A stretch of 64,000 nucleotides of DNA from Aulosira sp. ZfuVER01 (GTDB lineage: Bacteria; Cyanobacteriota; Cyanobacteriia; Cyanobacteriales; Nostocaceae). The translations under genes were made by a program, and so were the position numbers. The stretch is from contig JAVRCV020000036.1 of the NCBI GenBank assembly GCA_034530615.2, forward strand, positions 32,001 to 96,000. Reading direction: 5' to 3'. Numbering within the stretch: position 1 is the first letter of the stretch; each line of letters opens with the position of its first letter. This document shows positions 15,545-33,733 of this stretch, piece after piece. Under the pieces are notes generated by a model. The model worked only from the letters and a program-made list of their open reading frames with translations, ran no database searches and was not told where the DNA came from.

Positions 15545-16852
15545 TTACCTAATCTCTTCCAAATCCACCCACTCATCATAAGAAGAGTCGTAATCTAGGT
15601 AATGCACATAGTATTGCTGACCTTGAATTTTCTCAATCTTTGCAGAATACCAATCTTCGTTATCTTCATCCCAAACTTTGATTTTTTGGCTAACTGCAAA
15701 TCCATTGCTATCAGATGCGCCATGTTCGCGAATCCGAATCTCATCTTCGCCTACCCATTCGTTGTAGGATGAACCGTAGCCCAGGTAATGCACAAAGAAT
15801 TGGTCATTTTCGACTTTCTCAATTGTGGCTTGATACCAATCTTCTTCGTCACCATCCCAGACTTCTACTGTTTTGCTGACTGCATACTGGCTGGTATCTG
15901 ATTTCGCCGCCGATGAGGTATCTTGGCGCGACTGTGGCGCATCTTGGGGAGTTTCGGCTTTAACTAAAGAATGCGATCGCAAAATCAAAGTACGAGCTAC
16001 GGTTTGAATTCCTGTATGTTCGTAGTAATTGGTAGTTTGATCCAAAAATGCAGCAACAAAATCTAAATTATCATCAGCAATCTGGATAAAATTACCTAAA
16101 TGGCTAGAAATAGATTGCGGTGTTAAACCTGTCTTGGCTACTAAGTTATTCATCCAGCCTTGCACGGAGTTAAAAGCTTGAGTAATAAAGCCAAATTTCT
16201 CACCAGGGTTATTACCTGGTAAAGAGTTGTTAACTGCTAAGAAAACAGGATTTTGCGCTACTACGCTGCTGGCATCTGCACCACTAATAATGCTATGAAT
16301 CTTGCTGAGGAAGTCGGGGCCTAAAGGTAGCATTCCATCTAGACAAACTAAAGCTACCATCCGCGTTAAGGATGCATCTTTATAGTTTTCTGCTAAAGAA
16401 GTAGCAAATGCTTGAGGATTTGGGCTAGGAATACCATTTAGTTTAGAAAAGGCGATAATTTCGACAGCAATTTTTAAGACTAAATCTATAGTTTGAGTTA
16501 CATCTGCTTTGGGAGTGATATTACTTAAAAAAGAGAGAAACCCGATTTTTTCACCTACTTTATTAGCTAAAGCTGCTGTAGCCATAGCCGTATCAGCTTT
16601 ATCGATAGTTTGATAAAGTTTGATTGCAGTTTGGTAGCCATTTTGCGGATCGTTATACAAAGAAACAGCGTGATCGCGAATTTTCTGAATTACATTGGCA
16701 TCAGTCTCACCAGTAATTGCACGGATACTATTGTCAAACCCCACCATGTTGTTCCACTCGCCTGGGGCAACGTAATCAAGAGCTTTTAAAACCTTGACAG
16801 TAATATTGTCATTTGGTAATTCGTCAACCAACTGAATAATTGACTTATCCAT
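15545..16852 (-). CDS. Conserved cyanobacterial protein with two C-terminal Tudor/Agenet (Tudor-knot-like) domains
   Basis: Two similar ~50-aa units: V(E/K)VWD..EDWY.A.IEK....(F/Y)VHYL.Y.SSY.EWV...EIR. Confidence 0.75.
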   Translation of the reverse strand: MDKSIIQLVDELPNDNITVKVLKALDYVAPGEWNNMVGFDNSIRAITGETDANVIQKIRDHAVSLYNDPQNGYQTAIKLYQTIDKADTAMATAALANKVGEKIGFLSFLSNITPKADVTQTIDLVLKIAVEIIAFSKLNGIPSPNPQAFATSLAENYKDASLTRMVALVCLDGMLPLGPDFLSKIHSIISGADASSVVAQNPVFLAVNNSLPGNNPGEKFGFITQAFNSVQGWMNNLVAKTGLTPQSISSHLGNFIQIADDNLDFVAAFLDQTTNYYEHTGIQTVARTLILRSHSLVKAETPQDAPQSRQDTSSAAKSDTSQYAVSKTVEVWDGDEEDWYQATIEKVENDQFFVHYLGYGSSYNEWVGEDEIRIREHGASDSNGFAVSQKIKVWDEDNEDWYSAKIEKIQGQQYYVHYLDYDSSYDEWVDLEEIR

Positions 16853-16950
16853 CAATCAATTCCTCGCAACTCAAAGGTATAGTATTAAATTATACTCAAT
16901 CATTTTGAGTTGTCGATTGCTTATTCAGAGCTAAAGTCCAGACAAGAGAA

Positions 16951-18462
16951 TCATCTCAATTTCTCTAACAAAGCTTCTGTTTGCTGCATCTTCACTAAAG
17001 TATTGGCACATAAAATACCAGATGCAGCTACCGCAGGTACACCAATTCCTGGCATGGTACTATCACCGACGCGATATAAACCTTGTATGGGTGTGTGTGT
17101 ACTGGGGAACATTCCCTTATCTGCGGCTATTGCTGGGCCATAGGTTCCTTGATACCTGCGCAGATAATGAGCATGAGTTAAGGGTGTACCAATTAGTTCC
17201 ACTACCACACGCTCGCGGATATCGGGGATAATCTTCTCTAAGGCGCGATATAAAGTTTGGGCTTTTTGCTGTTTCTTTTCTGCATACTCCTGATTTCTTT
17301 CCCATCCAATGTAAGGTTCGAGAGTGTAAGCATGAACTACATGATGTCCTTGGGGCGCAAGTGTTGCATCCCATACAGTGGGAATTGAAATCATACAGGT
17401 ATTTCCGGGTGTGGCGATATCTTGCTGCGAATCGTGGACTACTACATGATGTCCGGTTAAATTTTCCAACCCATCAGCGCGGATACCTAAATGTAAATGC
17501 ATGAAACTTGGAACGGCTGGAGTTTCTAAAACTGCTTGGCGGTAAGTGACAGGTAAATCTTTGGGACTTAACAAATGATTGTAGGTATCCCAGATACTCG
17601 CATTGGAAATGACAATCGGTGCGTGGAGAATTTCGCCGTTTTTTAGCTTTACACCCACGACTTTGCCAGATTCCACCAAGATTTGCTCAACGTGACATCC
17701 TAAACGCAACTTTCCACCCCAGCGTTCTAAACCCCTGACTAAAGCCTGAACAATTGCGCCACTCCCGCCTACAGGATACTCAACTCCAGCACGGGAACGT
17801 TCGCCCAACATAAAAGCGACTTCGGGTGCAATTGTCCCCTGTGCTTTTAAACCGGAGAGTAAGAAGCATTCTAAATCAATGAGTCGCCGCACCCAAGGAT
17901 CTTGTACTGTTGCATCCATCACATTACCAACTGAACTTTGCACCAGTGGCAAATAGGGCAACATTTTCACTAAAGAAGGGAGGTAACTTTTAAGTAATGT
18001 TAAAATTACCTGCCAATCTGCTCGCAACGCTAGGGTAGGAATATCCCGCATCGCTCCATACAACCCTAACAAGCGTTCTATAAAGCGTTGGAGTTCTTTT
18101 GCACCTTGCGGCGTAATTCTCTCTACCTCATGCCGATAACGCTCTGCATCCTTGTAGACTGCAATAGTGCCTTCAGGAAAATGGTAGTGTCCTAAAGGAT
18201 CATAAGGTATAACTTGAATGGATTCACCAAGCACATCCAAAACTTGTTTTACCGGATTCAAGCTTTGGGCATCAGTCAAACCACAGTAGAAAGAAGGGCC
18301 AGAATCAAATTCAAATCCTCGTCGTCTAAAACTATGAGCCGCACCCCCAGGAATTACATGACTTTCGCAGACGATCGCTCGCTTGCCATAATAAGCAAGT
18401 AATCCCGCAGCACACAACCCCCCGATACCGCTACCAATTACTATGACATCACTATCTTGCAT
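16951..18462 (-). CDS. FAD-dependent carotenoid isomerase / phytoene desaturase family oxidoreductase
   Basis: VIVIGSGIGG FAD motif, FDSGPS, GTPLTH, GDSTMPGIGVPAVAASG; start moved to MQDSD (upstream part of the ORF runs through repeats). Confidence 0.88.
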   Translation of the reverse strand: MQDSDVIVIGSGIGGLCAAGLLAYYGKRAIVCESHVIPGGAAHSFRRRGFEFDSGPSFYCGLTDAQSLNPVKQVLDVLGESIQVIPYDPLGHYHFPEGTIAVYKDAERYRHEVERITPQGAKELQRFIERLLGLYGAMRDIPTLALRADWQVILTLLKSYLPSLVKMLPYLPLVQSSVGNVMDATVQDPWVRRLIDLECFLLSGLKAQGTIAPEVAFMLGERSRAGVEYPVGGSGAIVQALVRGLERWGGKLRLGCHVEQILVESGKVVGVKLKNGEILHAPIVISNASIWDTYNHLLSPKDLPVTYRQAVLETPAVPSFMHLHLGIRADGLENLTGHHVVVHDSQQDIATPGNTCMISIPTVWDATLAPQGHHVVHAYTLEPYIGWERNQEYAEKKQQKAQTLYRALEKIIPDIRERVVVELIGTPLTHAHYLRRYQGTYGPAIAADKGMFPSTHTPIQGLYRVGDSTMPGIGVPAVAASGILCANTLVKMQQTEALLEKLR

Positions 18463-18464
18463 TT

Positions 18465-18600
18465 TTGCCCTTCGTCCTTTGTCAGTTGTCCTTTGTCTAA
18501 AACCCATGACCCTTCGGGTTCGCAGTTGCTCATGGGGGAAACCCCCAAGACCGCACTGACTCACCAATGACCAATGACTAATCACCCATGACAAATGAAC
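18465..18600. repeat. STRR heptamers flanking a short dispersed palindromic repeat (TGGGGGAAACCCCCAAGACCGCACTG)
   Basis: Hairpin visible; reverse-complement fragment CAGCGCGGTCTTGGGGG at about 15412-15428. Confidence 0.7.
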
Positions 18601-19373
18601 CATTAATTGAATTAAAAGGCGTGTCTAAGTCCTTTGGTAGTAATAAGGTTTTAGATAATATAGATTTGACCATTTATCGGGGAGAAGCACTAGGAATTAT
18701 TGGGCCTTCTGGGACTGGTAAATCTACAATTCTACGAGTAGTTGCGGGATTGCTGCTTCCTGATGAAGGCGAAATTTATCTAGAAGGGGTGCGGCGCAAC
18801 GGTTTAATTGAAGATGCGGCTGATAATGTTGGAATTGGGATGGTGTTTCAGCAAGCGGCGTTATTTGATTCGTTAACAGTAGAAGAGAATGTAGGGTTTT
18901 TACTGTATCAAAATTCCAAAATACCGCGATCGCGCATTCGCGACATGGTTCATACCAAATTAGAGATGGTAGGTTTGCCTGGAATCGGAGATCTATACCC
19001 ATCTGAACTTTCTGGCGGTATGCGTAAACGAGTCAGTTTTGCTCGTGCGATTATGTCTAACCCCGAAAGCGACCATGAGGGGCCAGAACTTTTACTGTAC
19101 GATGAACCGACTGCCGGACTAGATCCGATTGCTTCCACAGTCATCGAAGATTTAATTCGCCATTTGCAACGGGCACAAGGAGTTTGTAGTACTTACGCCA
19201 TTGTGACTCATCAAGACAGTACCATTCGTCGTACTGCGGACAGAGTTATATTTCTGTACCAGGGTAGAGTACAGTGGCAGGGTACAGTGAGTGAAATAGA
19301 TAGCACAGACCATCCATTGATTAGACAATTCATGAGTGGCAGTGTGCAAGGGCCGATTCAGGTCGTTGGGTAA
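18588..19373 (+). CDS. MlaF/TGD3-type lipid ABC transporter ATP-binding protein
   Basis: GPSGTGKS, LSGGMRKRV, YDEPTAGLDP, VTH. Confidence 0.92.
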   Translation: MTNEPLIELKGVSKSFGSNKVLDNIDLTIYRGEALGIIGPSGTGKSTILRVVAGLLLPDEGEIYLEGVRRNGLIEDAADNVGIGMVFQQAALFDSLTVEENVGFLLYQNSKIPRSRIRDMVHTKLEMVGLPGIGDLYPSELSGGMRKRVSFARAIMSNPESDHEGPELLLYDEPTAGLDPIASTVIEDLIRHLQRAQGVCSTYAIVTHQDSTIRRTADRVIFLYQGRVQWQGTVSEIDSTDHPLIRQFMSGSVQGPIQVVG

Positions 19374-19389
19374 TGGATGGAGGAATAAT

Positions 19390-20817
19390 ATGCGATCGCG
19401 TACAGTGAGAGAAGGTTCTGTCGGGCTGTTAGTCCTTATGGGGCTGGGAGTCTTTGGGCTAATAGTCGTGTGGTTGAATCGAGTTAGTGCTAGTCGCAGT
19501 TCATACAAGGCTATTGTGGAATTTGCTAACGCTGGCGGGATGCAAAAAGGTTCAACAGTCCGCTACCGAGGCGTGAAAGTGGGCAATATTTCTGCCATTC
19601 GACCAATGCCCAATAATATCGAAGTAGAAATTGAAATTTTCCAACCCGATTTAATCATTCCTAAAGATGTGGTGGTAGAAGCCAATCAGAGTGGATTGAT
19701 TAGCGAAAGTATTGTAGACATTACACCAAAAGCTTCTTTCCCTCCTGGGACTGTCGCCGCTAAACCCCTAGATAAAGATTGCGATCCCAACCTGATTATA
19801 TGTAATGGCGCTCGGTTAAAAGGTCAAATTGGTATCAGTCTTGATGAACTTATTCGCAGCACAACTGAGTTAGCTACTGTATACAATGACCCCAAATTCT
19901 ATCGTAATGTTAACAGGCTACTAGAATCCTCCACAGCAGCGGCGACTAGTTTTGCTTCTCTGAGTCGGGATCTTCAAAGTTTAACCAAAAGTGCCAAAGG
20001 TCAACTCAACACATTTTCTTCTACCGCAACTTCCGTACAACAAGCAACAACTCAACTTACTGCAACTTCTACTCGTACAGCTAATGAACTTGGCTCGGCA
20101 GCAAAACAATTTAGTATAACTGCAACTCAAGCAAGTCGGTTGTTAACTAACCTTGATAACCTAGTCACATCAAATCGTTCGACCTTAGTTGGTGCTTTAA
20201 ACAATCTCACCGAAACCAGCAACCAATTACGTACTACATTCACTAGCTTATCGCCTGCTGTCAATCGCTTAACTCAAGGAGAGGTCATCAAAAATTTAGA
20301 AACTCTGTCAGCGAATGCAGCACAAGCATCAGCAAATTTACGCAATGCTACTAACTCTTTAAACGATCCCAAAAATGCAGTGTTACTGCAACAAACCTTA
20401 GATTCCGCAAGACTTACATTTGAAAACACGCAAAAAATTACCTCAGATTTAGATGAATTGACAGGCGATCCTAAATTCCGCAGTAATCTGCGTCAATTGG
20501 TGAATGGCCTGAGTAATTTGGTGTCTTCTACCCAACAAATGGAGCAGCAAGCAAAGGTTGCAGTTACCCTAGATGCCCTCAAAGCATCTATTAATAAACC
20601 AGATGCAGTACTTCCCACCCCAGCCATCAAGCAACAGACGGTAACGATTAATTCCTTACCCACTGCTTTGAAATCCCTGGAGAAAAACCCCCAGACAACT
20701 TTCACTTTATCCACCCCACAACCATCTTCCCAAGAGTTATTGCAGCGACTGCGGCAGTATAGTAAAGAACGAGAGCAGGAGAAGATAGCGGACAAGGAGG
20801 AGAAGGGGGAAAAGTGA
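19390..20817 (+). CDS. MlaD/MCE (TGD2-like) lipid transport protein
   Basis: REGSVGL + TM, VRYRGVKVG, QSGLISE, long helical region; start at ATG 19390. Confidence 0.9.
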   Translation: MRSRTVREGSVGLLVLMGLGVFGLIVVWLNRVSASRSSYKAIVEFANAGGMQKGSTVRYRGVKVGNISAIRPMPNNIEVEIEIFQPDLIIPKDVVVEANQSGLISESIVDITPKASFPPGTVAAKPLDKDCDPNLIICNGARLKGQIGISLDELIRSTTELATVYNDPKFYRNVNRLLESSTAAATSFASLSRDLQSLTKSAKGQLNTFSSTATSVQQATTQLTATSTRTANELGSAAKQFSITATQASRLLTNLDNLVTSNRSTLVGALNNLTETSNQLRTTFTSLSPAVNRLTQGEVIKNLETLSANAAQASANLRNATNSLNDPKNAVLLQQTLDSARLTFENTQKITSDLDELTGDPKFRSNLRQLVNGLSNLVSSTQQMEQQAKVAVTLDALKASINKPDAVLPTPAIKQQTVTINSLPTALKSLEKNPQTTFTLSTPQPSSQELLQRLRQYSKEREQEKIADKEEKGEK

Positions 20818-20875
20818 CGCGGTGACGCGGAGAATGAGCATTGACTGTTGACTATTGACGATTGACTATTGACCA

Positions 20876-21937
20876 ATGACAACTGACAATTTTTTCTTGC
20901 GTAATGTTTGGTATTACGCTTTGCCAAGCGATCGCTTAAAACCCGGTAAGATGCTTGCTCGGACTTTCTTGGGAGAACCAGTACTGCTGTGTCGTAACCG
21001 AGAGGGTAAAGCATTTGCTTTAAAGGATATTTGTCCTCATCGGGCTGTACCTTTAAGTTGCGGTCAATTTGATGGGCAGGAAGTAGAATGCTGTTACCAC
21101 GGTTGGCGTTTTAACCATGCGGGACGTTGCACCGCGATTCCCTCTCTAGTAGAAGGGCACGATGTAGATTTAAATCGCTACAATGTAGAATCCTACGAGA
21201 TTCGCGAAACCCAAGGTAATATCTGGATATTTATGCCAGAACCGGGTAAATCTAAGTCTCCTGCCTCAGCAATGGAAATTCCAGAAATTCCAGAGATTCC
21301 TGGCTTTGGCGATCGCCCGCCGCAGTTAGTGGAAGTGATGCGGTTTCCCTGCTTTATCGATCATGCAGTCTTAGGCTTGATGGACCCTGCCCATTCACCT
21401 TACGTTCATCGGGTATGGTGGTGGCGTTCTGGACAACTCCATGACGAAATCAAGCAATTTGATTCTTCACCTTACGGGTTTACCATGCGTAAACACCAAT
21501 TACCAGCCAATACAGGTGCAGCTTATAAGTTCATCGGCGGCGGAATTCCCGAAATAGAGATTTCGTTTCGGATACCGGGAGTAAGGGTAGAAAACATCAC
21601 AACTGCCAAGCATCAAGTTGCCAACCTGACAGCAATTACACCAATTTCGGAAACAGAATGCGAAGTTAATTTTGCGTTTTATTGGACAGTACCTTGGGCA
21701 GGATTTGCCAAGCCGTTGATCCGTGTATTAACACGGGCTTTTTTAGGACAAGACCGCACAGTAGTTGAAAAGCAGCAGATTGGCTTGAAATACGATCCAG
21801 TGCTGCGGCTGATTAAAGATTCAGATGTGCAGGCGCAATGGTATTACCAGTTAAAGCGAGAATATGCGCGTTCAATCGCTGAAGGTCGTCCATTTGTCAA
21901 CCCAGTGAAGAGTCAAGTATTGCACTGGCGGGCTTGA
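20876..21937 (+). CDS. Rieske non-heme iron oxygenase alpha subunit
   Basis: CPHR...CCYHGW Rieske motif; DPAHSPYVH iron-binding motif; QD near C-terminus. Confidence 0.92.
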   Translation: MTTDNFFLRNVWYYALPSDRLKPGKMLARTFLGEPVLLCRNREGKAFALKDICPHRAVPLSCGQFDGQEVECCYHGWRFNHAGRCTAIPSLVEGHDVDLNRYNVESYEIRETQGNIWIFMPEPGKSKSPASAMEIPEIPEIPGFGDRPPQLVEVMRFPCFIDHAVLGLMDPAHSPYVHRVWWWRSGQLHDEIKQFDSSPYGFTMRKHQLPANTGAAYKFIGGGIPEIEISFRIPGVRVENITTAKHQVANLTAITPISETECEVNFAFYWTVPWAGFAKPLIRVLTRAFLGQDRTVVEKQQIGLKYDPVLRLIKDSDVQAQWYYQLKREYARSIAEGRPFVNPVKSQVLHWRA

Positions 21938-21997
21938 TAGAGGCTTCCCTATTGCAATCTGCTAGCGAATGGTAGGTTTACAATTTGATTGCATCGG

Positions 21998-22170
21998 CTT
22001 GCATTGTTAATGCATTGGCTTGTTATGCCAATGCATCGGTCTGTTATGTTAATACGTTGGTCTGTTATGCCAATACGTCGGCTTGTTATGCTAATACGTC
22101 GGTTTGTTATGCCAATACGTCGGTCTGTTATGCCAATACGTCGGTCTGTTATGTTAATACGGCAGCTTGC
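21998..22170. repeat. 21-bp minisatellite, about 8 units (consensus TGTTATGCCAATACGTCGGTC)
   Basis: Directly visible; VCYANTS periodicity in ORF track. Confidence 0.92.
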
Positions 22171-22401
22171 AAAATTAACCTGAGAACTTGAATCGGTAGT
22201 GCATTAGGCGTTTCCCCATAACGCACCTAATATCTCTGGAGACTACACCCTGAGTTACTCAGCCTGGCATTTGTTGAAGAATAGGAGCGATCGCCTAAGA
22301 TTCTCTATAGGGGCAAATTCTATAGCAGTCACAAATCATTTGTGAGAAACTACAAATGTCAAATTACAAATGATAGCATACTAAAATTAGTCTAAATATC
22401 T

Positions 22402-23754
22402 ATGAATATATCTAATTATCAACGTGCTAATACTCTTAAAAAAGCCTTCCAAGTGTGTACTTTAGAACCCTTGGAAGGTGAAGACATTGAAAAATATTAT
22501 GTTGATTTATCAGCAGTACGTAAAACTTCAGCCGTTGAGAGCGTTAGTACAATTTTAGACTTTCAAGAACCAGCAGATTTTAGAACGATTTTATTTACTG
22601 GACATCGGGGTTGTGGCAAAAGCACTGAGCTAAAACGCATTCAAAAGCTTTGGAACGAAAGTTATCATGTAATTTATTTAGAAGTAAATGAAGAAACCGA
22701 TATTAACGATGCCAGTTATACGGATTTATATTTAATCGTTATCAAGCAAGTAGAATTTGAACTAAGAAAATTAGGTTTACAATTTGACGAAAAACTCTTA
22801 CATAACTTTGAAGAATGGTTTAAGGATATTACTAAAGAAACTGAAGAAAGTGTTGAAAAATCGGTCAGCATTGAGGGAGAAGCAACACTGAAACCCGAAG
22901 CACCATTTATTGCTAAATTAATGGTCAAATTGCTGGCACAAATTAAAGGTTCTGATAAACAAAAAACGACGATTCGCCAAACTTTAGAAAAAGACTTGTC
23001 TCGCTTAAAAGCAGATATTAATTTATTGCTAGGTGATGCTTACGTTAAACTCAGGAAAAAATATCCAGATTATAAAGGACTACTAATTATATTTGACAAC
23101 ATGGATAGGGTTCCGCCTGCGGTTGCTAACCATTTATTTTTTGACTATGCGGCTCAGTTGCAAGAATTGAACTGTACCATTATTTATACAGTCCCAATTT
23201 CTATTCTATGTTCACCTAAAAACCCCTTGGCTTTGTTTAATGGTAATCCCCATATAGTGCCAATGGTGAATATATACGAATTAGACAGGGATAGTTGCCA
23301 TTTAAATTGCAATCAAGCTGGACTAGACGCAACAGCAAGCTTAATTGAAAAGCGCGTAGATATTGATGCTGTTTTTGAATCTCGCCAAGAATTGCTAGAA
23401 TTAGCCAAAGCTAGTGGTGGCCATGTTCGCCAATTGATGCAAATGATGCAAATTGCTTGTCAAACTGCTAGTACACACAAGCATCCTAAAATTACGGCTG
23501 AAGATGTCACCTATGCTATCAAGCAGCAGCAATTTAATTTTGAAAGGTTTATACCTGAAGAACATTATCATTATTTAGCCCAAGTATGTATCACCAAAGA
23601 TGTGAGTAAAGATGATATTGGTCAGTTAATGTTATTTAACACTTCAGTTTTAGAATACAACGGCAATAAAAGGTGGAATTACCCCAATCCAGTGGTAAAG
23701 CAAAATGAATTCTTCCAAAAAGCACTTGAATCAGCACTCGCAGGAAAATCATAA
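22402..23754 (+). CDS. P-loop (AAA+/STAND-like) ATPase
   Basis: Walker A GHRGCGKS, Walker B LIIFDNMDR, SGGHVR sensor-like motif. Confidence 0.88.
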   Translation: MNISNYQRANTLKKAFQVCTLEPLEGEDIEKYYVDLSAVRKTSAVESVSTILDFQEPADFRTILFTGHRGCGKSTELKRIQKLWNESYHVIYLEVNEETDINDASYTDLYLIVIKQVEFELRKLGLQFDEKLLHNFEEWFKDITKETEESVEKSVSIEGEATLKPEAPFIAKLMVKLLAQIKGSDKQKTTIRQTLEKDLSRLKADINLLLGDAYVKLRKKYPDYKGLLIIFDNMDRVPPAVANHLFFDYAAQLQELNCTIIYTVPISILCSPKNPLALFNGNPHIVPMVNIYELDRDSCHLNCNQAGLDATASLIEKRVDIDAVFESRQELLELAKASGGHVRQLMQMMQIACQTASTHKHPKITAEDVTYAIKQQQFNFERFIPEEHYHYLAQVCITKDVSKDDIGQLMLFNTSVLEYNGNKRWNYPNPVVKQNEFFQKALESALAGKS

Positions 23755-25642
23755 CGCCGAACTTGGGCAGTTTATTACACTGAATCAAGATATATTTGCT
23801 GAATTACTCACTTTTATCGACTTTGCCGAAAAATTTACACTGGGTTTTGTAGAAGTTAATTTTCCCCCAGATGCAGACTTATTAATTGCAGCTTTGCGAA
23901 CTCACCCGGAATGTGAACAGATTCAGTTTTGTGTTCTCAACTTCCCCGAAGAAAACTTGCGTTTTCTTCGGGATGAGATTGTCAAAGAATTAGCGAATAT
24001 TCAAGTAGACGCAAACAAGAAATTAGTTTTAGTTGTGCGGGGACTAGCAAAATCTATTGGCGTATATGGCGAATATCCCCCAATTTTACAAGACTTGAAT
24101 TTTGTACGCGATGCTTATAAAAGAACTGTTCCCCATCCAATATTATTTATTCTTCCAGATTATGCCATTACTCGCCTAGCTAAATTCGCCCCAGATTTTT
24201 GGGCTTGGAGTTCTGGAGTATTTCGGTTTAAAACACCAGAAAATACTAAAGAAAATGCGTTAAGCCAAGCTCAAAATACAGAAAGTATTGTAGATAGATT
24301 ACCACCGCCCGAAAAGCAAGAACGGATAGATTTATTAGAGCGTCTGTTGATGGAATATAAACCCACAGGCTATTCTATGCCAAAGGGAGATATCCGCAGA
24401 TATAGTAATGTTTTACATCAGTTAGGAGTGGCTTATCTCAGTCACAGAAAGCCAGAGAAAGCGAGGGAATATTTATCAGAAGCCGAAAAAATCGCTGAGA
24501 ATTTCAAAGATAGTAGCTTTCAAATTGAAGTTATCAACTCTTTGGGAAATACTTATTCTCAGCAAAGACAATTTGAGACAGCAATTACTTATTATCAACA
24601 AGCATTAAATATTGCCCAAAAGCTCAAAAATAAGCAAGAGGAAGCTACGTCTTTGTTTTATTTGGGTAATGCTTACTTAGAATTGAGACAATTTGCACAA
24701 GCTAATGAATATTACCAGCAGTGTTTAAAGATCGAGCAAGAGCTAGGCGATCGCTATTCTCACGCCTCTACCTACGGACAGTTGGGAATGCTTGCCCAAC
24801 AATTACGGGAATATGAGGAGGCACGGCACAATTACCAAGAGGCTTTAGCTATTTTTAGCGAATATGGCGATCGCTATAACCAAGCCAACATCTACCACAA
24901 CTTGGGAATAGTTGCCCAAGATTTGCAGGAATATGAGGAGGCACTGCGCAATTATCAGCAAGCTTTAGCTATTTGTATCGAATATGGCGATCGCTATAAC
25001 CAAGCCAGCACTTACTATCATTTGGGAATACTCGCCCAACAATTGCAGGAATATGAAGAGGCGCGGCGCAATTATCAACAAGCTTTAGCTATTTGTATCG
25101 AATATGGCGATCGCTATAACCAAGCTCGCATCTACCACGAGTTGGGAAGAGTTACCCAAAAATTGCGGGAATATGAGGAGGCGCGGCGCAATTATCAACA
25201 AGCTTTGGCTATTTGTCTAGAATATGGCGACTATTATAACCCAGCCCGCACATATTACCAGTTGGGAATGCTTGCCCAACAATTGCAGGAATATGAGGAG
25301 GCACGGCGTAATTACCAACAGGCTTTAGCTATAAAAATCGAATATGGCGATCGCTCTTCTCAAGCCAGCATCTACCACAACTTGGGAAGAGTTGCCCAAA
25401 AATTGCAGGAATATGAGGAAGCACGGTGCAATTATCAACAAGCTTTGACTATTTTGATCGAAGATGGCAGTCGCTATTCCCAAGCCAGCACTTACGGGCA
25501 ATTAGGATTGCTTGCAGAAGCGGAGAAAAACTTCCCAGAGGCGAGGGCGAATTTGCAGACAGCGTTGGCGATATATGTTGAGTATAAAGATGAATATTGG
25601 GCGGCGGTGGCGCGGGGAATTTTAGAGAGATTACCAGAGTGA
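23705..25642 (+). CDS. TPR-repeat protein with N-terminal APDFW-type domain
   Basis: LNFVRD...FAPDFWAW N-terminal domain; about 10 TPR-like repeats (YHNLG..AQ..QEYEEARRNYQQAL); overlaps ATPase gene by 50 nt. Confidence 0.9.
   Translation: MNSSKKHLNQHSQENHNAELGQFITLNQDIFAELLTFIDFAEKFTLGFVEVNFPPDADLLIAALRTHPECEQIQFCVLNFPEENLRFLRDEIVKELANIQVDANKKLVLVVRGLAKSIGVYGEYPPILQDLNFVRDAYKRTVPHPILFILPDYAITRLAKFAPDFWAWSSGVFRFKTPENTKENALSQAQNTESIVDRLPPPEKQERIDLLERLLMEYKPTGYSMPKGDIRRYSNVLHQLGVAYLSHRKPEKAREYLSEAEKIAENFKDSSFQIEVINSLGNTYSQQRQFETAITYYQQALNIAQKLKNKQEEATSLFYLGNAYLELRQFAQANEYYQQCLKIEQELGDRYSHASTYGQLGMLAQQLREYEEARHNYQEALAIFSEYGDRYNQANIYHNLGIVAQDLQEYEEALRNYQQALAICIEYGDRYNQASTYYHLGILAQQLQEYEEARRNYQQALAICIEYGDRYNQARIYHELGRVTQKLREYEEARRNYQQALAICLEYGDYYNPARTYYQLGMLAQQLQEYEEARRNYQQALAIKIEYGDRSSQASIYHNLGRVAQKLQEYEEARCNYQQALTILIEDGSRYSQASTYGQLGLLAEAEKNFPEARANLQTALAIYVEYKDEYWAAVARGILERLPE
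24740..25520 (+). repeat. 120-bp intragenic tandem repeat (6-7 units) encoding 40-aa TPRs
   Basis: HIP1 at exactly 24747, 24867, 24987, 25107 and 25347; degenerate at 25227 and 25467. Confidence 0.92.
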
Positions 25643-25684
25643 TGGGGAAATAGTGAAGGGCGATTATAATTTGTACTCTATCTA

Positions 25685-25978
25685 CTATTCTTCTGATCTG
25701 GAAGTGATTTGTTGTGAACCGTGGATAACAGCCAGAACTTCTATTTGCTCAGGTTTGATGTAGTAAATAATTCTATATGAACCTTCAATAACTTCACGAA
25801 TTTGCTCTGTTTGAAATTCTGGCACAATTCGACCTGATAAAGGAAAATTAGCAATCTGTTCTGAACGCCTCGTTAGTCGATCAACTACTCTAGCCGCATA
25901 TTGCGGTGAATTTTGGGCAATGTATGTATAAATTGCTGAAAGATTCTCTACGGCTGTTTCTGTCCAATAAACTTTCAC
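25685..25978 (-). CDS. RelE/ParE family toxin
   Basis: MKVYWTETAVENLSAIYTYIAQNSP, FPLSGRIVPE, YRIIY, VLAVIH. Confidence 0.9.
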   Translation of the reverse strand: MKVYWTETAVENLSAIYTYIAQNSPQYAARVVDRLTRRSEQIANFPLSGRIVPEFQTEQIREVIEGSYRIIYYIKPEQIEVLAVIHGSQQITSRSEE

Positions 25979-26163
25979 TCAGGTAGACCAAATTTTGCTC
26001 TAACTTCTTGCACAGAAGTCAGTCTACCAGCCTGACTGTCAGCCAGTCCAGCTTCTACAACTTGCCTGACGTAAATCTCGTACATCAAATCATCCCATGT
26101 AAAATTGTCTGGCAATCTCTCAATCAATTTTTTGGCTTCTTCTTTGATGTTTAGCTTTTCCAT
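25975..26163 (-). CDS. Putative antitoxin
   Basis: Small ORF overlapping toxin start by 4 nt; LPDNFTWDDLMYEIYVRQ..EAGLAD...GR. Confidence 0.85.
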   Translation of the reverse strand: MEKLNIKEEAKKLIERLPDNFTWDDLMYEIYVRQVVEAGLADSQAGRLTSVQEVRAKFGLPE

Positions 26164-26250
26164 AGATTTTCTCAAAACTGGCTCTATTACTTGATTGTAA
26201 GCTGAAATTAAATGTCTTAACTCTTCTGGCTAGAGTTTAAGCGCAACTAA

Positions 26251-26874
26251 TCAGCGACTCATTACAAAAATCTGTTCAGCCGTTAAAGGAATGTTCGGAA
26301 ACAATTTAGAATCAATTCGATCCTCTCCTCGAAACACCTTTGGGGGTAAATACTCTGCATCTTCAAGTTGGTAGATTGTAATTGTCGGCTGCTTGGGTGA
26401 GCCAATGAAGCGAATGCCACCAAAAGCAGCATAGTCCACAATGATGTACTCTAAAACCCCCAAGTCCTCATATTCAGCCAGTTTTGTTAGGTAGTCGTCC
26501 TTCCAATTGTTACTAACGACTTCAATAATTCCGGGTGGTGGAATATATGCAGCAGCAGAACTAGAAATAGTTTTCATCCGCTGCCATTCTTCCCTAGCAA
26601 ATATGACAATATTGGCTTTGCGGCTTTTTTCCTTTTCTCCTGGCGCTATCTTAAGCCGCACCTGCTTGGACTGTCGCGACACGTAAGGTAGGTCATTTTC
26701 TTGGCAGTGATTTTCAAGGTAGGCACACAGCCTCTGGATCAAATCCTCATGATTTGCATTTGGTTCTAATAATGGCACAGGAATTCCATCCAATAGCTCA
26801 AACTCTCTGCCTGAACCATCATCCCAGGCAAGAAACTCTTCAAAAGTCAGTGGTTGTGTGACGGTTGCGTACAT
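26251..26874 (-). CDS. Uma2 family PD-(D/E)XK endonuclease-like protein
   Basis: LTFEEFL, FELLDG, IEVVS, DYLTKLAEYEDLGVLEYIIVD; start moved to MYATV. Confidence 0.9.
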   Translation of the reverse strand: MYATVTQPLTFEEFLAWDDGSGREFELLDGIPVPLLEPNANHEDLIQRLCAYLENHCQENDLPYVSRQSKQVRLKIAPGEKEKSRKANIVIFAREEWQRMKTISSSAAAYIPPPGIIEVVSNNWKDDYLTKLAEYEDLGVLEYIIVDYAAFGGIRFIGSPKQPTITIYQLEDAEYLPPKVFRGEDRIDSKLFPNIPLTAEQIFVMSR

Positions 26875-27101
26875 CGCCCTCGCTCCATTGCTGACGGGTA
26901 CTTCACTCAATGCTATCAAGATGTACTGACAATGGGCATTGGGCATGGGGTATTGGGCATTGGCTTCGACTTCGCTCAGCCACCAGGGCATGGATTTTCA
27001 TGCTTGGTTGTGGGATTTTCTCGTGATTGACTGACTTAAAAGACACTTTTTGTTGATATATTCCCAGCAGTTGATACAAAATAGCTGGGTGTTCTCAATT
27101 T

Positions 27102-28295
27102 ATGAACAACGCAGGTAAAACGCCTGTCTCATTAGGGCTGTTGGGTGCAGCTGCTTTTATGGTAATTGCTGATGTGCGGGTAATTGACCCACTTTTGCAC
27201 ATCATCGCTGACGAGTTTAAAGTTGGTGTCGGTAGTGCGGCGATTATTGTCAGCGCTTACACAATTCCTTATGGGCTATTTCAATTAGTCTACGGCCCCT
27301 TGGGCGATCGCATTGGCAAACTCAAGGTAATTACAGCCGCACTAGCAGCCTTTGCTGTAGGTACTGCGGCTTGTGCTTTTGTGCCAAATATCATTCTCCT
27401 AACTTTACTGCGATTTCTCACAGGCATGGTAGCGGCGGGAATTATCCCCGTTACCCTTGCTTATATTGGTGACAATTTCCCCTACGAACAACGCCAAGCT
27501 GCTATTGGCAAATATCTGAGTGCGCTGGTATTGGGGCAAATTCTCGGTGGTAGTTTGGGCGGTATTTTTGGAGAATATGTTAGCTGGCGAGATATCTTTT
27601 TAGTATTTGGGGTTGTGTCCATGATTATCGCGATCGCATTGTGGCGGAAGATGGGCAAACTGAGCAATACGCATCATTCACAAATTCCCTTTGGTTGGGC
27701 AACATTTCGGCCTTATTTCCAACTTATAACGCAACCAGTCGCTCGGACTGTAATTATCGGCGTATTTATTGAAGGCTTTTGTTTGTTTGGGGGATTTGCT
27801 TATGTGGGTGCATTCCTCAGAGACAGATATAACTTGCCCTATGTAGCAATCGGCTTTATGCTGAGTGGTTTTGGCTTAGGTGGATTGATTTACAGCCGTT
27901 CTGTCAAGTGGTTAGTAAGGAGATTAGGAGAACGCGGCTTGATGGGGGTTGGTGGGGTATTTATGTGTATTTCTTTTTTAGCGATCGCATTATTGCAGAA
28001 TTGGGTGCTGTTTATTCCCTTCAATATTCTCATGGGATTAGGCTTTTACATGATGCACAGCACACTCCAGACGCAAGCGACAGAACTTGCGCCAGAAGCG
28101 CGAGGTACAGCGGTGTCGCTATTTGCATTTAACTTATTTATCGGCCAGGGAATTGGTGCGGCGGCATTTGGCAGAATTGTGGATAATTACGGCTATCTTC
28201 CTTGTTTTATTATCACGGGAATTGCGATCGCCTTGCTTTCCTTGTGGTTAGTAAAAGAAGGCAGGAGGCAGATGTCAGATGGCAGAAGGGAATAA
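27102..28295 (+). CDS. MFS transporter
   Basis: About 12 hydrophobic segments; GPLGDRIGK motif A. Confidence 0.92.
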   Translation: MNNAGKTPVSLGLLGAAAFMVIADVRVIDPLLHIIADEFKVGVGSAAIIVSAYTIPYGLFQLVYGPLGDRIGKLKVITAALAAFAVGTAACAFVPNIILLTLLRFLTGMVAAGIIPVTLAYIGDNFPYEQRQAAIGKYLSALVLGQILGGSLGGIFGEYVSWRDIFLVFGVVSMIIAIALWRKMGKLSNTHHSQIPFGWATFRPYFQLITQPVARTVIIGVFIEGFCLFGGFAYVGAFLRDRYNLPYVAIGFMLSGFGLGGLIYSRSVKWLVRRLGERGLMGVGGVFMCISFLAIALLQNWVLFIPFNILMGLGFYMMHSTLQTQATELAPEARGTAVSLFAFNLFIGQGIGAAAFGRIVDNYGYLPCFIITGIAIALLSLWLVKEGRRQMSDGRRE

Positions 28296-28498
28296 GCTTT
28301 CTTACATAACTTTTTTAACCTTCGTGTCAAGCAGAAGCAGCGTATTGAATTCTAATAAACTGTAATTTGTCATTTGCCATTGGTCATTTGTCATTTGTTC
28401 TTCTTCCCCTCATCTCCTCGTTGTCCTCCTTGTCCTCCTTGTCCCCCCACACTCCCCACACTCCCCACCCTCCCTTGTCGTTCTGCCTTCTACTTACC

Positions 28499-29317
28499 AT
28501 GCCCAGAGTTCACGTTAATGGAATCGATTTATTCTATGACATTAAAGGAACAGGTGAGCCTTTATTATTAATTGCAGGCTTCTTGTGCGATCATACCTAC
28601 TGGTCATTACTGATGCCTTCACTTGTGAAGCAGTATCAAGTCATTCGCTTAGATAACCGCGGCTTTGGGCGAACATCTGCCCCCGATAGTCCCTACAGTA
28701 TTCAGCAGATGGCGACTGATACAGCAGAACTGCTTGAGCGCATTGACATCAAAAAGGTACATTTAGCAGGGCATTCAATGGGTGGGCTAATTGCTCAAGA
28801 ACTAGCATTAGCACACCCAGAAAAAGTACAAAGTCTAATACTACTCTCATCCTTGGCAAAGGGTGATGCTCTATTCAATAGTATTATTGCCACTTGGGGT
28901 GAACTCCCCGCCAATATCGACCAGAAACTTTACCAACAAGTTATATTGCCCTGGATATTTAGCGATAACTTCTACTCAATTCCGGGGATGATTGACATGA
29001 TAGTGAAGATGGCGGTTAATTACCCATTTCCGCCAACCCCTTATGGATTGTTTCATCAAAGCCGCGCTATCCTTGGTTGCGATACTAGCAAACGCCTCAA
29101 TAATATTCAGTGTCCTACTTTAGTTATGGTAGGTAAACAAGATATTCTCACTCCGGTAAAGTTTTCTGAACAATTAGCCCAAGGTATTCCCAACGCTGAA
29201 CTCGTTGTTCTTGACCGTGGTGGTCATGGCTTCTTGATTGAATCACCGGAGGCTGTCGCTTCAGCAATGCTTAAATTTCTCTCCGGTCTTCCGAAAAATG
29301 GGATGTCTTTGATGTAG
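28499..29317 (+). CDS. Alpha/beta fold hydrolase
   Basis: DNRGFG, GHSMGG nucleophile, GKQD, GGHG; start moved to MPRVH. Confidence 0.92.
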   Translation: MPRVHVNGIDLFYDIKGTGEPLLLIAGFLCDHTYWSLLMPSLVKQYQVIRLDNRGFGRTSAPDSPYSIQQMATDTAELLERIDIKKVHLAGHSMGGLIAQELALAHPEKVQSLILLSSLAKGDALFNSIIATWGELPANIDQKLYQQVILPWIFSDNFYSIPGMIDMIVKMAVNYPFPPTPYGLFHQSRAILGCDTSKRLNNIQCPTLVMVGKQDILTPVKFSEQLAQGIPNAELVVLDRGGHGFLIESPEAVASAMLKFLSGLPKNGMSLM

Positions 29318-29359
29318 CAACATAACAGAAGCATACATTAGCATCTCAACTTATTATTT

Positions 29360-29746
29360 ATGAAATCTGCTCCCCTAGCCTTAGCTGTTATTATTGGTGC
29401 GCTTACTGTCTCCCAGAGTGCTTATGCTAACCAAAAGAATTCTCCGACTGCTACAAGCAATCAAGCTGCTGTTTTAGCCACAAAACCAGTCACGCTGACT
29501 AGTAGATGGAGTTATAGTATTAACCGCAATAATGGTTTTAAAGCAACTAATAATTCAATTGCACTAGACCAAAGCGGAGAATGCAAAATTCCTAAACCGT
29601 TTGAGATTCTGAAAAACCCGAGTATTTTTTTTAAGCCATGTCAGCAGCCAACAAATCAACAAACTGCACAACTAGCTGAACCAATTGAATATTTAAAAGT
29701 TCCTCGTCTCGATTCTGGTATTAAAGTAACTGTTTCTAAATTTTAA
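29360..29746 (+). CDS. Hypothetical secreted protein
   Basis: Signal peptide ending SAYA; no recognised domain. Confidence 0.65.
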   Translation: MKSAPLALAVIIGALTVSQSAYANQKNSPTATSNQAAVLATKPVTLTSRWSYSINRNNGFKATNNSIALDQSGECKIPKPFEILKNPSIFFKPCQQPTNQQTAQLAEPIEYLKVPRLDSGIKVTVSKF

Positions 29747-29781
29747 AAGGTAACAGGAATGTATATCTTAGATGTAGTAAT

Positions 29782-29813
29782 GTAGGGTGTGTTGTCGCGT
29801 AGCGCAACGCACC
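29782..29813. repeat. GTAG-type REP-like palindrome (inverted partner at about 29950-29981)
   Basis: GTAGGGTGTGTTGTCGCGTAGCGCAACGCACC versus GGTGCGTTAGGCTACGCCATAACACACCCTAC. Confidence 0.7.
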
Positions 29814-29998
29814 ATCAACAATTCAATGTGCTGTTTCTAAATTTTAAAAGTGACAGGAAATAGAGAATAGGCAACAGTAATTGATATATAACAATCTGAT
29901 TTAATTTTTATACAATTCTAAGTAGAATAACTCACCAATAAAAGCTTTTGGTGCGTTAGGCTACGCCATAACACACCCTACTTCTCTAATAAGAAATG

Positions 29999-31207
29999 CT
30001 AAATTACCGCTGCGGTTGCTTTTAAGGCAAAAATTCTTTCGATGACATCTTCTACTACCTTATCGGGGGTAGAAGCACCAGAAGTAATCCCCACAACTAT
30101 CTTACCTTCAGGTAGCCAGTTATCTTGGGTGACTATATCCCCAGTTAATTGACGATGTTCAATGGATTTTGCTGATTTGATGCGCTCAACACAATCAATG
30201 TGATAAGAAGGAATTCCTCGCTCAAAAGCTATCTGTTGCAATTGGGTAGTATTGGATGAATTAAACCCACCAATTACAATCATCAAATCTAAATTTTGTT
30301 GCACTAAGTCCAACATTGCATCTTGACGTTCTTGGGTAGCATCACAGATTGTGTTGAAGCTTTGGAAATGTTGATTGATTTCAGTGGGTCCATACTTCTG
30401 CATCATTGTCCGTTCAAACAACTTGCCAATTTGTTCGGTTTCGCCTTTGAGCATTGTTGTTTGGTTAGCAATACCCACTCTTTCTAAGTCTTTATCGGGG
30501 TCAAATCCGGCGGAACAAGCTTTAGCAAATTTCTTTAAGAACTCCTCGCGATCGCCACCATTAAGAATATAGTTGCTAACATATTCTGCTTCCCGCATAT
30601 TCAGCACAATTAGATATTTACCAGCAAAGGAACTGGTGGCAACAGTTTCTTCGTGCTTGTATTTACCGTGGATAATTGAGGTGTAATCGACTTTCTTGTG
30701 CTTCTCAACTGTATTCCAAACTTTCGACACCCAAGGACAAGTTGTATCGACAATTTTGCAGCCTTTATCATGGAGAACCTGCATTTCCTGAACGCTGGCT
30801 CCAAAGGCAGGTAAGATGACTACATCTTCGTTTTCAACTACAGAAAAGTCTTTTATCCCTGCATTAACAGGGATAAATTTAACCTCCATCTCCTGCATAC
30901 GTTGATTCACAGAGGGATTGTGAATAATCTCATTTGTAATCCAAATGCGATCGCTTGGGAAGTGTTGACGGGTTTCATAAGCCATTGCTACTGCACGTTC
31001 CACACCCCAGCAGAAGCCAAAAGCTTGCGCTAACCGAATTGTCACCTCACCTTGTTCTAAGGTGTAGTTGCGATCGCGAATTTGTTGGATTAAGCTACTT
31101 TGATATTCAGACTGTAACTGTGTAGCAACCTCTGCTTGATGACCAAAGCCTTTGCGATTATAGTTTTCCGAGTGTTGCAGGGTACGCTTAAAAGCTTTTG
31201 TATCCAT
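29999..31207 (-). CDS. ispH: 4-hydroxy-3-methylbut-2-enyl diphosphate reductase
   Basis: [53 protein letters not shown]. Confidence 0.98.
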
Positions 31208-31315
31208 TAGATTGTTTTAGATTAGTTCACCATCTCTCATTTTCTCGCGTTAAGTGTCATTGGTCATTTGTCATTAGTTATTTCTCCCTCATTCCCCTTG
31301 TCCCCCTTGTCTCCC

Positions 31316-33648: not shown

Positions 33649-33686
33649 AAAAATTAAAATATCCAACTAAGAGTTTTGTGACCCTC

Positions 33687-33720: not shown

Positions 33721-33733
33721 CTTAGGTATTTAT

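Follow-up and report, generated by a model that had tools for sequence, protein, structure and literature searches.

A split ATPase/TPR gene pair of Aulosira sp. ZfuVER01 with a predicted inactive AAA+ head and a diversified repeat array

The gene pair and its neighbours

The window analysed here is the whole 64,000-nt stretch of Aulosira sp. ZfuVER01 contig JAVRCV020000036.1 (positions 32,001 to 96,000), and all coordinates refer to it. ORF calls place two genes on its plus strand. Gene A (22402-23754) encodes a 450-aa AAA+/STAND-like P-loop ATPase, and gene B (23705-25642) encodes its 645-aa partner. As the preliminary description of this DNA had pointed out, the ATPase gene overlaps the TPR gene. 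The overlap is 50 nt, and an identical one is present in 29 of the 40 loci that permitted its measurement.

A lack of co-conservation had been named in advance as evidence against a two-gene system. The two genes proved to be co-conserved: a B-type partner lies directly 3' of the gene A homologue in 44 of 49 loci, and the unpaired loci are contig ends or relics. Among more distant ATPase matches, 51 of 53 have a head domain within 1.5 kb downstream, and 8/8 family-A ATPases of the host genome have a partner head. Two relics have lost A and B together. At one locus (L140) the B head and the A ATPase are joined in a single chain.

The wider A family was present in all 24 genomes sampled of the host's own family, with 2-8 copies each. 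One paralogue carries a HetZ-related regulator (a HetZ-related protein 2 fusion). The subfamily of the window is patchy and was found in 5 of 14 same-genus genomes; in other genomes the slot is an empty site or holds relics or other cargo, which points to birth and death of the module. No relative of gene A was found among the viral contigs searched, and a plasmid search gave 9 records, each a distant paralogue. One contig from a relative's RNA run covers genes A and B and is about 90% alike, which does not prove transcription. A literature search did not find the pair of A ATPase and partner head described.

Downstream, on the minus strand, lie a ParE/RelE toxin gene (25685-25978; PF05016) with an upstream 62-aa ORF (together 25685-26163) and a Uma2 nuclease-like gene (26251-26991; PF05685). 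The 62-aa ORF has no Pfam match and, from its position, is probably the antitoxin. The toxin gene and this ORF are passengers that are not conserved with the module. It had been suggested that these neighbours fit a defence context. The ParE and Uma2 genes are indeed there, but the context is weak, because Uma2 is kept at the site in a genome that lacks the module (G006) and the neighbour proteins are almost without complete systems. These were 53 proteins chosen by eye from 126 representatives, with obvious housekeeping genes omitted. A PADLOC-type scan found no complete system among them except one restriction-modification pair; single-domain matches were to a kinase, HerA, Uma2 and a methyltransferase. 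A defence-island setting was considered and not found, as the neighbourhoods are mostly housekeeping genes.

The gene A ATPase and the head of B

In 25 aligned proteins, Walker A (G67-S74; 22600-22623, plus strand), Walker B (D232/D235) and the SGGxxR343 motif of gene A are invariant. Gene A thus has the intact Walker A and B motifs that are canonical for the P-loop NTPase of a STAND/NLR protein. The same alignment has no invariant Arg ahead of strand 5. The C-terminus likely forms a winged helix, judged from the sequence. Profile matches to AAA_14, KAP_NTPase, Cdc6_lid and Sll1717 were all weak, and no specific family was found in Pfam, NCBIfam or PADLOC. In the ESM Atlas, gene A falls into KAP-labelled clusters, and sequence searches of solved structures returned P-loop noise only.

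The head of B (residues 21-225; 23765-24379, plus strand) was modelled with AF2 at a pLDDT of 91.5 and is predicted to be an inactive, iSTAND-like AAA+ fold without a P-loop. Its best VIA matches were TnsC (Z 11.5) and ORC2/3 (Z 10.5), with an rmsd of 3.5-3.6 over 145-151 residues, and Foldseek matched it to RFC (E 3.7e-6). BrxC, Avs4 and AVAST5 were also among the fold matches. Walker A was found in none of 96 aligned heads. N132, R135, D164 and W168 are invariant, with R135 in 96/96. The model and the missing Walker A support the earlier suggestion of a degenerate-NTPase-like "APDFW" domain. After strand 169-174 the model of B contains helices only.

No Pfam family matched the head even at E up to 10, none was found in NCBIfam or PADLOC, and the ESM Atlas places it in unnamed clusters. 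Pfam thus lacks the partner head of an ATPase that occurs in several copies in each genome sampled from the host's cyanobacterial family. Profile-profile comparison of the head with gene A was not significant, so it does not demonstrate that the head is a copy of A. At the putative classic arginine-finger position, placed by the RFC motif, 63 of the 96 heads have R or K and B of the window has Ser169.

The repeat array: groove variation, recombination and HIP1

Behind the head lie three diverged 40-aa TPR-like units (24386-24745, plus strand), which appear as helix pairs in the model. The third has merely 47-54 of 120 bases in common with the array units. Six 120-bp/40-aa TPR units follow (24746-25465, plus strand), as defined by TRF, in-register alignment and fold match, and then a diverged seventh unit with a capping helix (25466-25642, plus strand), placed by alignment and model. 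At 24782-25490 TRF reports 5.9 copies of a 120-bp period. The best fold match of the array was the Pins/LGN TPR (Z 28.4, rmsd 2.1 over 329), and peptide-binding Rap TPRs were also among the best.

In register, units 1-6 have 88-105 of 120 bases in common (73-88%), compared with 67-76 for unit 7. The units had been called near-identical, which these values show to be an overstatement; the closest pair compared by eye (units 2 and 3) shares 33 of 40 residues. The helix-A strings given at the time (ASTYGQLGML, ANIYHNLGIV, ASTYYHLGIL, ARIYHELGRV, ARTYYQLGML, ASIYHNLGRV and ASTYGQLGLL) are exact, and the near-invariant scaffold holds for helix B of units 1-6.

The variable unit positions 5, 8, 12, 15, 19 and 37 correspond to TPR positions -1, 2, 6, 9, 13 and 31. 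The TPR groove is formed by positions 2, 5, 6, 9, 12 and 13 (PMC1261162). Mapping therefore puts the variable residues mostly on the groove, and there pN exceeds pS: the groove set has a pN/pS of 1.19 [1.08-1.29] compared with 0.37 elsewhere, in 28 of 36 arrays. Against pooled pS, six codons have pN/pS of 1.3-2.1 with bootstrap intervals above 1. These six codons change faster than silent sites, with a maximum of 2.9 times the rate at four-fold third positions, and in the groove codons the rate of radical changes is above that of silent ones. Against the pS of the same codons, however, the groove set reaches only 0.83 [0.71-1.06]. Within the groove, constraint holds at positions 5 (0.47) and 12 (0.40), so that relaxed constraint may explain the variation instead. 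Among 196 units there are 165 distinct five-site residue combinations.

Repeat number and order, which the preliminary description had proposed to compare, both vary between species. Arrays range from 3 to 14 units, and 36/36 complete arrays differ. The array is thus hypervariable over evolutionary time, as had been claimed, but not as a fast switch, since in the array of locus L002 none of the six units has been lost or moved. Three DNA runs, possibly from the same source, have Logan contigs that cover the array without differing letters, although contigs hide rare variants. One 47-nt tract is at twice depth in these contigs, which fits its two copies in the window.

Compared with L002, flanking genes have a pS of 0.41-0.53. 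The value drops to 0.34 for A and 0.33 for the head, and further to 0.17 for TPR1-3 and about 0.12 for the array itself. Arrays therefore look recently shared between species. The lower divergence of the sensor region than of any flanking gene also bears on neutral repeat turnover, in which an amplified TPR unit would be homogenised by unequal crossing-over while an unconstrained surface drifts without a recognition role. The same-codon ratio of the groove fits this explanation, as do the continued collinearity with L002 and the finding that recently amplified, decaying repeats are common in cyanobacteria, as stated in excerpts of PMC9218822. We nevertheless consider it very improbable: the outer-face and scaffold positions are strongly constrained, the six codons exceed the silent rate and the variation is concentrated on one helix face.

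Within the window's array, 36 of 62 informative site pairs fail the four-gamete test, so the reported reuse of variants in mosaic combinations is real. Incompatibility is 0.26 for near and 0.54 for far pairs (permutation p=0.002), which indicates fine-scale mosaicism. Units are mosaic internally and are not swapped whole. On this sequence evidence, diversification is by short-tract recombination among units together with unit gain and loss. Whole arrays were probably acquired from other species, and there has probably been exchange with the CHAT-NTPase-TPR receptor genes treated below.

Five units carry a HIP1 site, at 24747 (24747-24754), 24867, 24987, 25107 and 25347. All five are in one phase over GGC GAT CGC, the Gly-Asp-Arg codons, as described before. 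HIP1-directed cassette shuffling would exchange whole 120-bp units through crossovers at these sites. Homologous HIP1 sites are reported to raise integration efficiency in Synechococcus PCC 7002 (excerpts of bioRxiv 2024.09.10.611283), and synonymous-only pairs are incompatible in 6 of 8 cases spanning HIP1 and in 5 of 14 not spanning it, which are very small numbers. Against this, Gly-Asp-Arg is written as HIP1 in 627 of 759 cases genome-wide (83%) and in 129 of 161 in the repeats (80%), and the presence of HIP1 is therefore the genome-wide way of coding these residues. Codon 37 is linked to codon 5 of the next unit across HIP1 (z 4.4), among the strongest linkages measured, whereas linkage across the scaffold is nil. 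Incompatibility is low near HIP1. At matched distance it is no higher across HIP1 than elsewhere (0.35/0.49, 0.40/0.58, 0.56/0.48, 0.57/0.64 and 0.56/0.54). Of 204 ends of long identical tracts, 16 lie in that tenth of the unit which contains HIP1. Arrays L036 and L040 are free of HIP1 and yet have five different units, and the internal mosaicism does not fit whole-unit exchange. Recombination at HIP1, as proposed earlier, is therefore unsupported, and cassette shuffling is highly implausible. Background frequency, linkage across HIP1, incompatibility and tract ends led us to reject HIP1 as the crossover site, with the small synonymous-only subset pointing the other way; the sites are background and had no functional part as far as tested. 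The negative result removes an attractive but needless claim.

A putative sensor switch and its relation to known systems

No effector domain was found in A or B with Pfam, NCBIfam or PADLOC, as the first reading had it, and among the 25 commonest Pfam matches listed for 96 aligned family members there was no effector. Some relatives of A occur as fusions with HipA or EAD1, and others adjoin CHAT or MoxR-vWA genes. Effector fusions are rare, 9 proteins in 8000 candidates scored, possibly including chance read-through. Among 9 longer homologues a weak search found no fusion of A to a TPR array.

The split-system arrays and the single-chain CHAT-NTPase-TPR receptors (L097-L100) belong to one 120-bp repeat family. 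Within one genome, units of the two kinds are identical at up to 98 of 120 bases, and one partner (L034) bears the receptor-type C-terminal cap at 72-77% DNA identity. The receptors differ from the pair in being one chain with a caspase-like CHAT effector, an intact NACHT-like NTPase and unrelated N-terminal parts. The host genome has no CHAT-NTPase-TPR gene of the array's repeat family. This last finding bears on an effector-less decoy or sponge, in which B would bind an invader protein, or an invader inhibitor of such receptors, and A would recycle or remodel the complex with no downstream death signal. The missing effector and the shared repeat family suit a decoy, and inactive enzymes have been proposed as decoys (excerpts of PMC7159879). 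It is quite improbable, as the receptor to be protected is missing from the host and there is no obvious need for an invariant head surface or for strict coupling to A.

We lean towards a reading in which the two proteins together form an immune-type sensor switch and the predicted dead head docks on A, much as BrxB docks on BrxC. The TPR groove would bind a foreign or non-self protein; its residues are the ones that diversify. The B head may then dock on the nucleotide pocket of A, for which BrxB-BrxC is the precedent, and give an arginine in trans; invariant R135 is the best candidate. Ligand on B would thereby control ATP loading and the oligomer state of A. The weakest step is the output, which might pass to an effector encoded elsewhere, since the cassette has none and relatives of A carry or adjoin HipA, EAD1, CHAT or MoxR-vWA. 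Of the two-gene sensor first proposed, the design of ATPase, predicted dead head and TPRs and the recombining repeats stand, a special role for HIP1 is unsupported, and the immune function is inferred.

Several results count against an immune switch. There is no cassette effector and no matching CHAT-NTPase-TPR gene in the genome, and the head-versus-A profile result, Ser169, the rarity of effector fusions, the same-codon ratio of the groove and its two constrained positions weigh on the same side. So do the housekeeping neighbourhoods, the HetZ-related paralogue and the occurrence of the wider family in every genome sampled, which is above that of most defence systems. These last three would equally suit a non-immune signalling or assembly switch. 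In that case A and the head would serve large-genome cyanobacteria as a general ATP-gated module for docking. The array would bind a peptide or protein of the host during development or symbiosis, and its variation would track partner divergence. The peptide-binding TPRs among the best fold matches agree with this. It is unlikely, given that the window's subfamily is patchy and often lost, no two complete arrays are alike, radical groove changes outrun silent ones and the array family is common to caspase-type receptors.

Should the pair prove to be a sensor switch, bacterial NLR-like immunity would gain a split architecture and, with it, a small two-gene test case. The array provides repeat alleles as a natural library in which few sites vary. 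The evidence for exchange, both with caspase-linked receptors and from species to species, is relevant to how recognition can diversify in bacteria without the help of retroelements. A wider possibility, which we hold tentatively and with some doubt, is a receptor network of multicellular cyanobacteria. It would combine a universal ATPase/pseudo-ATPase switch with one pool of 120-bp TPR units whose five- or six-position groove code is shuffled within arrays, traded with NLR-like genes linked to caspases and transferred as whole alleles from species to species. If true, bacteria would have an equivalent of the HNWD repeat pools of fungi or of trans-species immune alleles, and the groove code would be readable as a programmable peptide-binding code.

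Canonical STAND/NLR proteins have NTPase and repeat sensor in one polypeptide, whereas in the window, as at 44 loci, each is encoded by a gene of its own. The canonical N-terminal effector is absent from A and B and occurs solely on the rare relatives. Fungal NLRs, as excerpts of Dyrka et al. 2014 (PMC4986451) describe them, are single-chain effector-NBD-repeat proteins whose repeats exceed 85% identity and are polymorphic within a species, from isolate to isolate. Their TPRs resemble the array in unit-number variation, recombining units and possible exchange between loci; they also have diversifying concave-face positions, which the groove codons of the array may parallel. The window system differs in its two chains, its lack of an effector and about 82% identity between its closest units, below the fungal type of over 85% across 100 aa; its number polymorphism and recombination come from comparison between species.

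Avs proteins each consist of one polypeptide with the effector at its N-terminus and a large, non-repetitive sensor (excerpts of Lee et al. 2026, PMC13581612). They and STAND-TPR receptors couple an NTPase switch to a sensor (a TPR sensor in the latter), and Avs4 and AVAST5 match the B head in fold, but the window system is split, effector-less and repetitive. Six homologue accessions are absent from 7 supplements of that paper, whose large tables may list the clade, and homologue accessions are absent from the searched supplements of PMC7159879. The cyanobacterial WRAP operons (Dunin-Horkawicz et al. 2014, as described in part of PMC9218822), proposed to act in innate immunity, likewise couple two STAND genes, and the repeat domain of one was amplified recently. 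Their sensor is a beta-propeller, their second ATPase carries TIR or caspase as effector, and that description does not include a dead head.

In BrxB-BrxC, an inactive AAA+ protein (iSTAND) without Walker motifs is paired with an ORC/Cdc6-type ATPase. BrxB gives an arginine to the ATP pocket of BrxC, stimulates it and limits its oligomerisation (excerpts of PMC13326643 and PMC12839542). The likeness lies in a Walker-less AAA+ partner with an ATPase, and BrxC is a fold match of the B head. BrxB, however, bridges to PglZ in those accounts, while the B head carries a TPR sensor, so that BrxB-BrxC is a precedent for the working only. PADLOC models of BREX matched neither A, B nor the 53 neighbours, and no MoxR or vWA ORF of the MoxR-vWA ternary system was recognised by eye at 14000-34000.

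The nSTAND2 two-gene system is a predicted hetero-oligomer with a predicted counter-invader role (excerpts of Kaur et al. 2021, PMC8195603), and its examples are proteobacterial among the first 30 of 104 table places. In its two-gene operon the active STAND-type NTPase comes first and an inactive NTPase with fused TPRs second, the order seen here. Its inactive domain is described there as followed by a wHTH, with HEPN or GT4 as the effector, whereas B has no wing in its model and the window system has no effector, with no HEPN or GT4 Pfam match; the array of B is homogenised and recombining. Pfam nSTAND2 (PF20702) had no match above cut-off anywhere in the genome, the best (E 0.6) lying outside genes A and B. 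The module is thus not a member of nSTAND2, which is its closest counterpart in print; it is a split architecture that combines a predicted dead-ATPase head with a TPR array.

Anatomy and pairing of the two genes

The reading frames of gene A (22402-23754) and gene B (23705-25642) share 50 nt. The C-terminal part of B is an array of six 120-bp units, which agree pairwise at 88-105 of 120 bases; a seventh, diverged unit and then a capping helix close the protein. The seven helix-A strings quoted in the preliminary description match the window sequence exactly, and the array appears without variants in contigs of three sequencing runs that are a possible source of the sequence. Upstream of gene A lies a 21-bp tandem repeat (22005-22161), with similar DNA at many sites in this and related genomes, an empty site included. 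Shortly before the start of gene A, a stretch of 36-44 nt (22321-22364) recurs in closely similar form on two or more further contigs from the same sequencing runs and is possibly a shared regulatory or dispersed element.

The Walker A, Walker B and SGGxxR motifs of gene A are invariant in an alignment of 25 proteins, including paralogues at 21-29% identity. We take these motifs to be those of an ORC/Cdc6-like or basal STAND AAA+ ATPase, and read gene A as such an enzyme with a putative C-terminal winged helix. Family-library matches were weak and mixed (AAA_14, KAP_NTPase, Cdc6_lid, Sll1717), and PADLOC gave partial P-loop matches only. The family comprises 1273 proteins among 8000 candidates scored, with close relatives in Nostoc, Aulosira, Anabaena and Coleofasciculus and eight copies in the window's genome. 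Across the phylum 48 of 151 genomes carry it; within the source organism's own family the count is 24/24, and within one large family 0/65; look-alike clusters in Myxococcota and Bacteroidota are a lead only. The close relatives P0271-P0279 (51-57% identity) are fusions, placed behind a HipA kinase or ahead of an ABC ATPase into which EAD1 is inserted, and P0273 carries a 550-aa N-terminal part without annotation. A plasmid MoxR operon (L142:4099-15500) has an A-family ATPase at the end of a vWA-type gene, adjoined by HEAT, FGE-sulfatase and restriction genes.

No Pfam family was found for the head of B (residues 21-225), which has 849 relatives among 50%-identity representatives. Fold matches of its AF2 model (pLDDT 91.5, built from 96 sequences) were all AAA+: TnsC (Z 11.5), ORC, RFC (E 3.7e-6), Cdc6, BrxC, CED-4 and plant NLRs. 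Walker A is present in 0 of the 96 aligned heads and Gly stands at the end of the Walker B strand, while N132, R135, D164 and W168 are invariant. Since only AAA+ folds were matched and Walker A is lacking, the "degenerate NTPase" head proposed earlier is right as a predicted fold. Comparison of the head with A gave no support for its descent from gene A. A 166-aa solo head with no ATPase gene alongside (G000:C23:20049-20549, minus strand) could be a competitor of paired heads.

The pairing itself is clear. Partner B directly follows gene A in 44 of 49 loci, and the other five are three contig ends and two relics with both genes decayed. Among distant ATPases, a head domain lies at most 1.5 kb downstream in 51 of 53 matches with room, a count that takes in the window and two duplicated loci and is partly circular because sequences of these very loci had been used to broaden the head profile. 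One of the two exceptions is a tandem ATPase with a partner after it; the other ATPase bears a long fusion and has a CHAT gene after it. In one locus (L140) a single chain holds the head and an A-type ATPase; there (L140:2-8212, minus strand) an ATPase precedes this fusion, and a head fused to a 1567-aa protein follows it.

The ATPase and the head form a constant core, and what follows the head varies: paralogous heads are followed by TPRs of 34, 40, 42 or 46 aa, by nSTAND1 plus WD40, or by a HetZ-related regulator. The C-terminal half of one paralogous partner (L055:1829-4420, G000:C61) is a whole HetZ-related protein 2 (NF037965, E 4e-168). Two A-B cassettes stand in tandem at L053:1344-8094 (G000:C4), the first partner having highly similar 42-aa TPRs of a repeat family different from the window's. 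An 802-aa partner (L016:7301-9709) extends beyond the usual cap, and its tail resembles the window Uma2 protein when compared by eye, through either effector capture or chance read-through.

Variation and probable exchange of the array

In the Pfam TPR_1 alignment residue 277 falls on position 4, so TPR position equals unit position minus 6. The most variable unit positions among 185 units were 8, 12, 15, 19, 37 and 5, corresponding to TPR 2, 6, 9, 13, 31 and -1. PMC1261162 places TPR ligand contacts at positions 2, 5, 6, 9, 12 and 13. This groove set was fixed after viewing the window units and before the multi-genome count. Its pN over pooled pS was 1.19 (1.08-1.29), compared with 0.37 for the remaining codons, and 28 of 36 arrays gave a ratio above 1; with pS taken from these codons themselves, the ratio was 0.83 (0.71-1.06). 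Single-codon pN/pS at the six variable positions was 1.68, 1.43, 1.99, 1.26, 2.14 and 1.46, with all intervals above 1, and TPR positions 5 and 12 were constrained (196 units, 40 arrays). Because these figures are pairwise counts inside arrays from related genomes, support for positive selection is moderate. Neutral turnover of the repeats appears very unlikely. In the predicted model, unit positions 8, 12, 15 and 19 lie on helix A with one-face spacing, and the best structural match of the modelled array was the peptide-binding TPR of Pins/LGN.

The arrays are mosaic. The share of site pairs that fail the four-gamete test is 0.26 at ≤15 nt and 0.54 at ≥40 nt (p=0.002), an increase that reads as the signature of short-tract recombination. 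Complete arrays have 3-14 units and 36 of 36 differ. Diversification is not a fast switch: each unit of the array at locus L002 matches the unit at the same place in the window's array (111-116 of 120 bases). Arrays at L001, L086 and L087 gave no unit-order match to the window's. L002 belongs to a more distant genome by flank identity (78-87%, versus 87-92% for L086 and L090), yet its silent divergence from the window, 0.41-0.53 in flanking genes, drops to 0.34 in A, to 0.17 in TPR1-3 and to ~0.12 in the array. From this we infer that a sensor allele passed between species after their split.

Single-chain CHAT-NTPase-TPR proteins of the genus end in the same repeat family as the window array, with up to 98 of 120 bases common to units of both systems in one genome. 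One partner (L034) joins a head region with 76% identity to the head in the window to a receptor-type cap, which has 72-77% DNA identity to four CHAT-NTPase-TPR receptor genes. This combination, together with a receptor-type cap outscoring the window-type cap in 4 of 81 long representatives, indicates a probable exchange of sensor ends at some time between the two gene families. A truncated TPR remnant (L105:5112-5834, minus strand) stands where related genomes hold a CHAT-NTPase-TPR gene, and one such gene (L100) has a frameshift at the array start.

HIP1 sites in the array

HIP1 lies over Gly-Asp-Arg at the start of five array units. The window holds 72 sites against 0.3 expected (genome-wide, 0.96 per kb). 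Gly-Asp-Arg is spelled as HIP1 in 627 of 759 cases in long reading frames of the genome, where codon usage predicts 4%, and in 129 of 161 in the repeats; the five sites are thus expected for any amplified Gly-Asp-Arg. Beyond this background frequency, HIP1-directed shuffling of units, as first proposed, is contradicted by strong linkage across HIP1 (z 4.4 at 24 nt), some of which may reflect structural co-variation; across the scaffold there is none. Incompatibility reaches its minimum near codons 34-4 and its maximum at codons 10-19, ends of long identical tracts show no preference for the HIP1 tenth of the unit (16 of 204), and the window's 47-nt duplicated tract runs across a HIP1. A small subset of synonymous-only site pairs does point towards HIP1, with incompatibility in 6/8 pairs spanning it vs 5/14 not spanning it. 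We consider such shuffling highly improbable. Homologous HIP1 sites are reported to make integration more efficient in Synechococcus PCC 7002 (bioRxiv 2024.09.10.611283); by analogy, HIP1 may ease whole-allele uptake by transformation here, equally for any gene of the genome.

Genomic context and proposed mechanism

Among 14 same-genus genomes, 5 carry the window's A-B subfamily. Between the Rieske and MFS genes, G006 has an empty slot, G004 and G013 keep relics, and G005, G007 and G010 contain other cargo. Such cargo (L093:3052-5844 and L094:2421-4529) comprises a 930-aa ORF that no Pfam family matches, and a DUF4082 plus dimethylformamidase-like protein. Uma2 is kept at a site that lacks the module, and the ParE pair is not co-conserved with it, so both are passengers. 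The defence context first read from these genes is weak, and neighbourhoods at other loci are mostly housekeeping genes. A non-immune signalling role of the pair is possible but unlikely.

Sequence comparison establishes the anatomy of the genes, their pairing, the mosaic arrays and the variation at particular sites, and the AAA+ fold of the head is a prediction. We lean towards a sensor in which the TPR groove of B would bind a non-self protein. The head would dock on A and supply R135 to the ATP site there, in the manner of BrxB acting on BrxC, a precedent for an inactive domain acting on an ATPase's ATP site (PMC13326643, PMC12839542). Output would pass to an effector in trans, the weakest step since the genome itself has no matching CHAT receptor. 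That the pair is instead a decoy seems distinctly unlikely.

No description of the pair was found among the openly readable papers and supplements searched. The present analysis adds a negative test of HIP1, counts bearing on selection and recombination, an allele and a sensor pool that are shared, and links to effectors. The pair works like the nSTAND2 two-gene system but does not belong to it, and it resembles fungal repeat-shuffling NLRs in the same way, alike in working but outside their membership.
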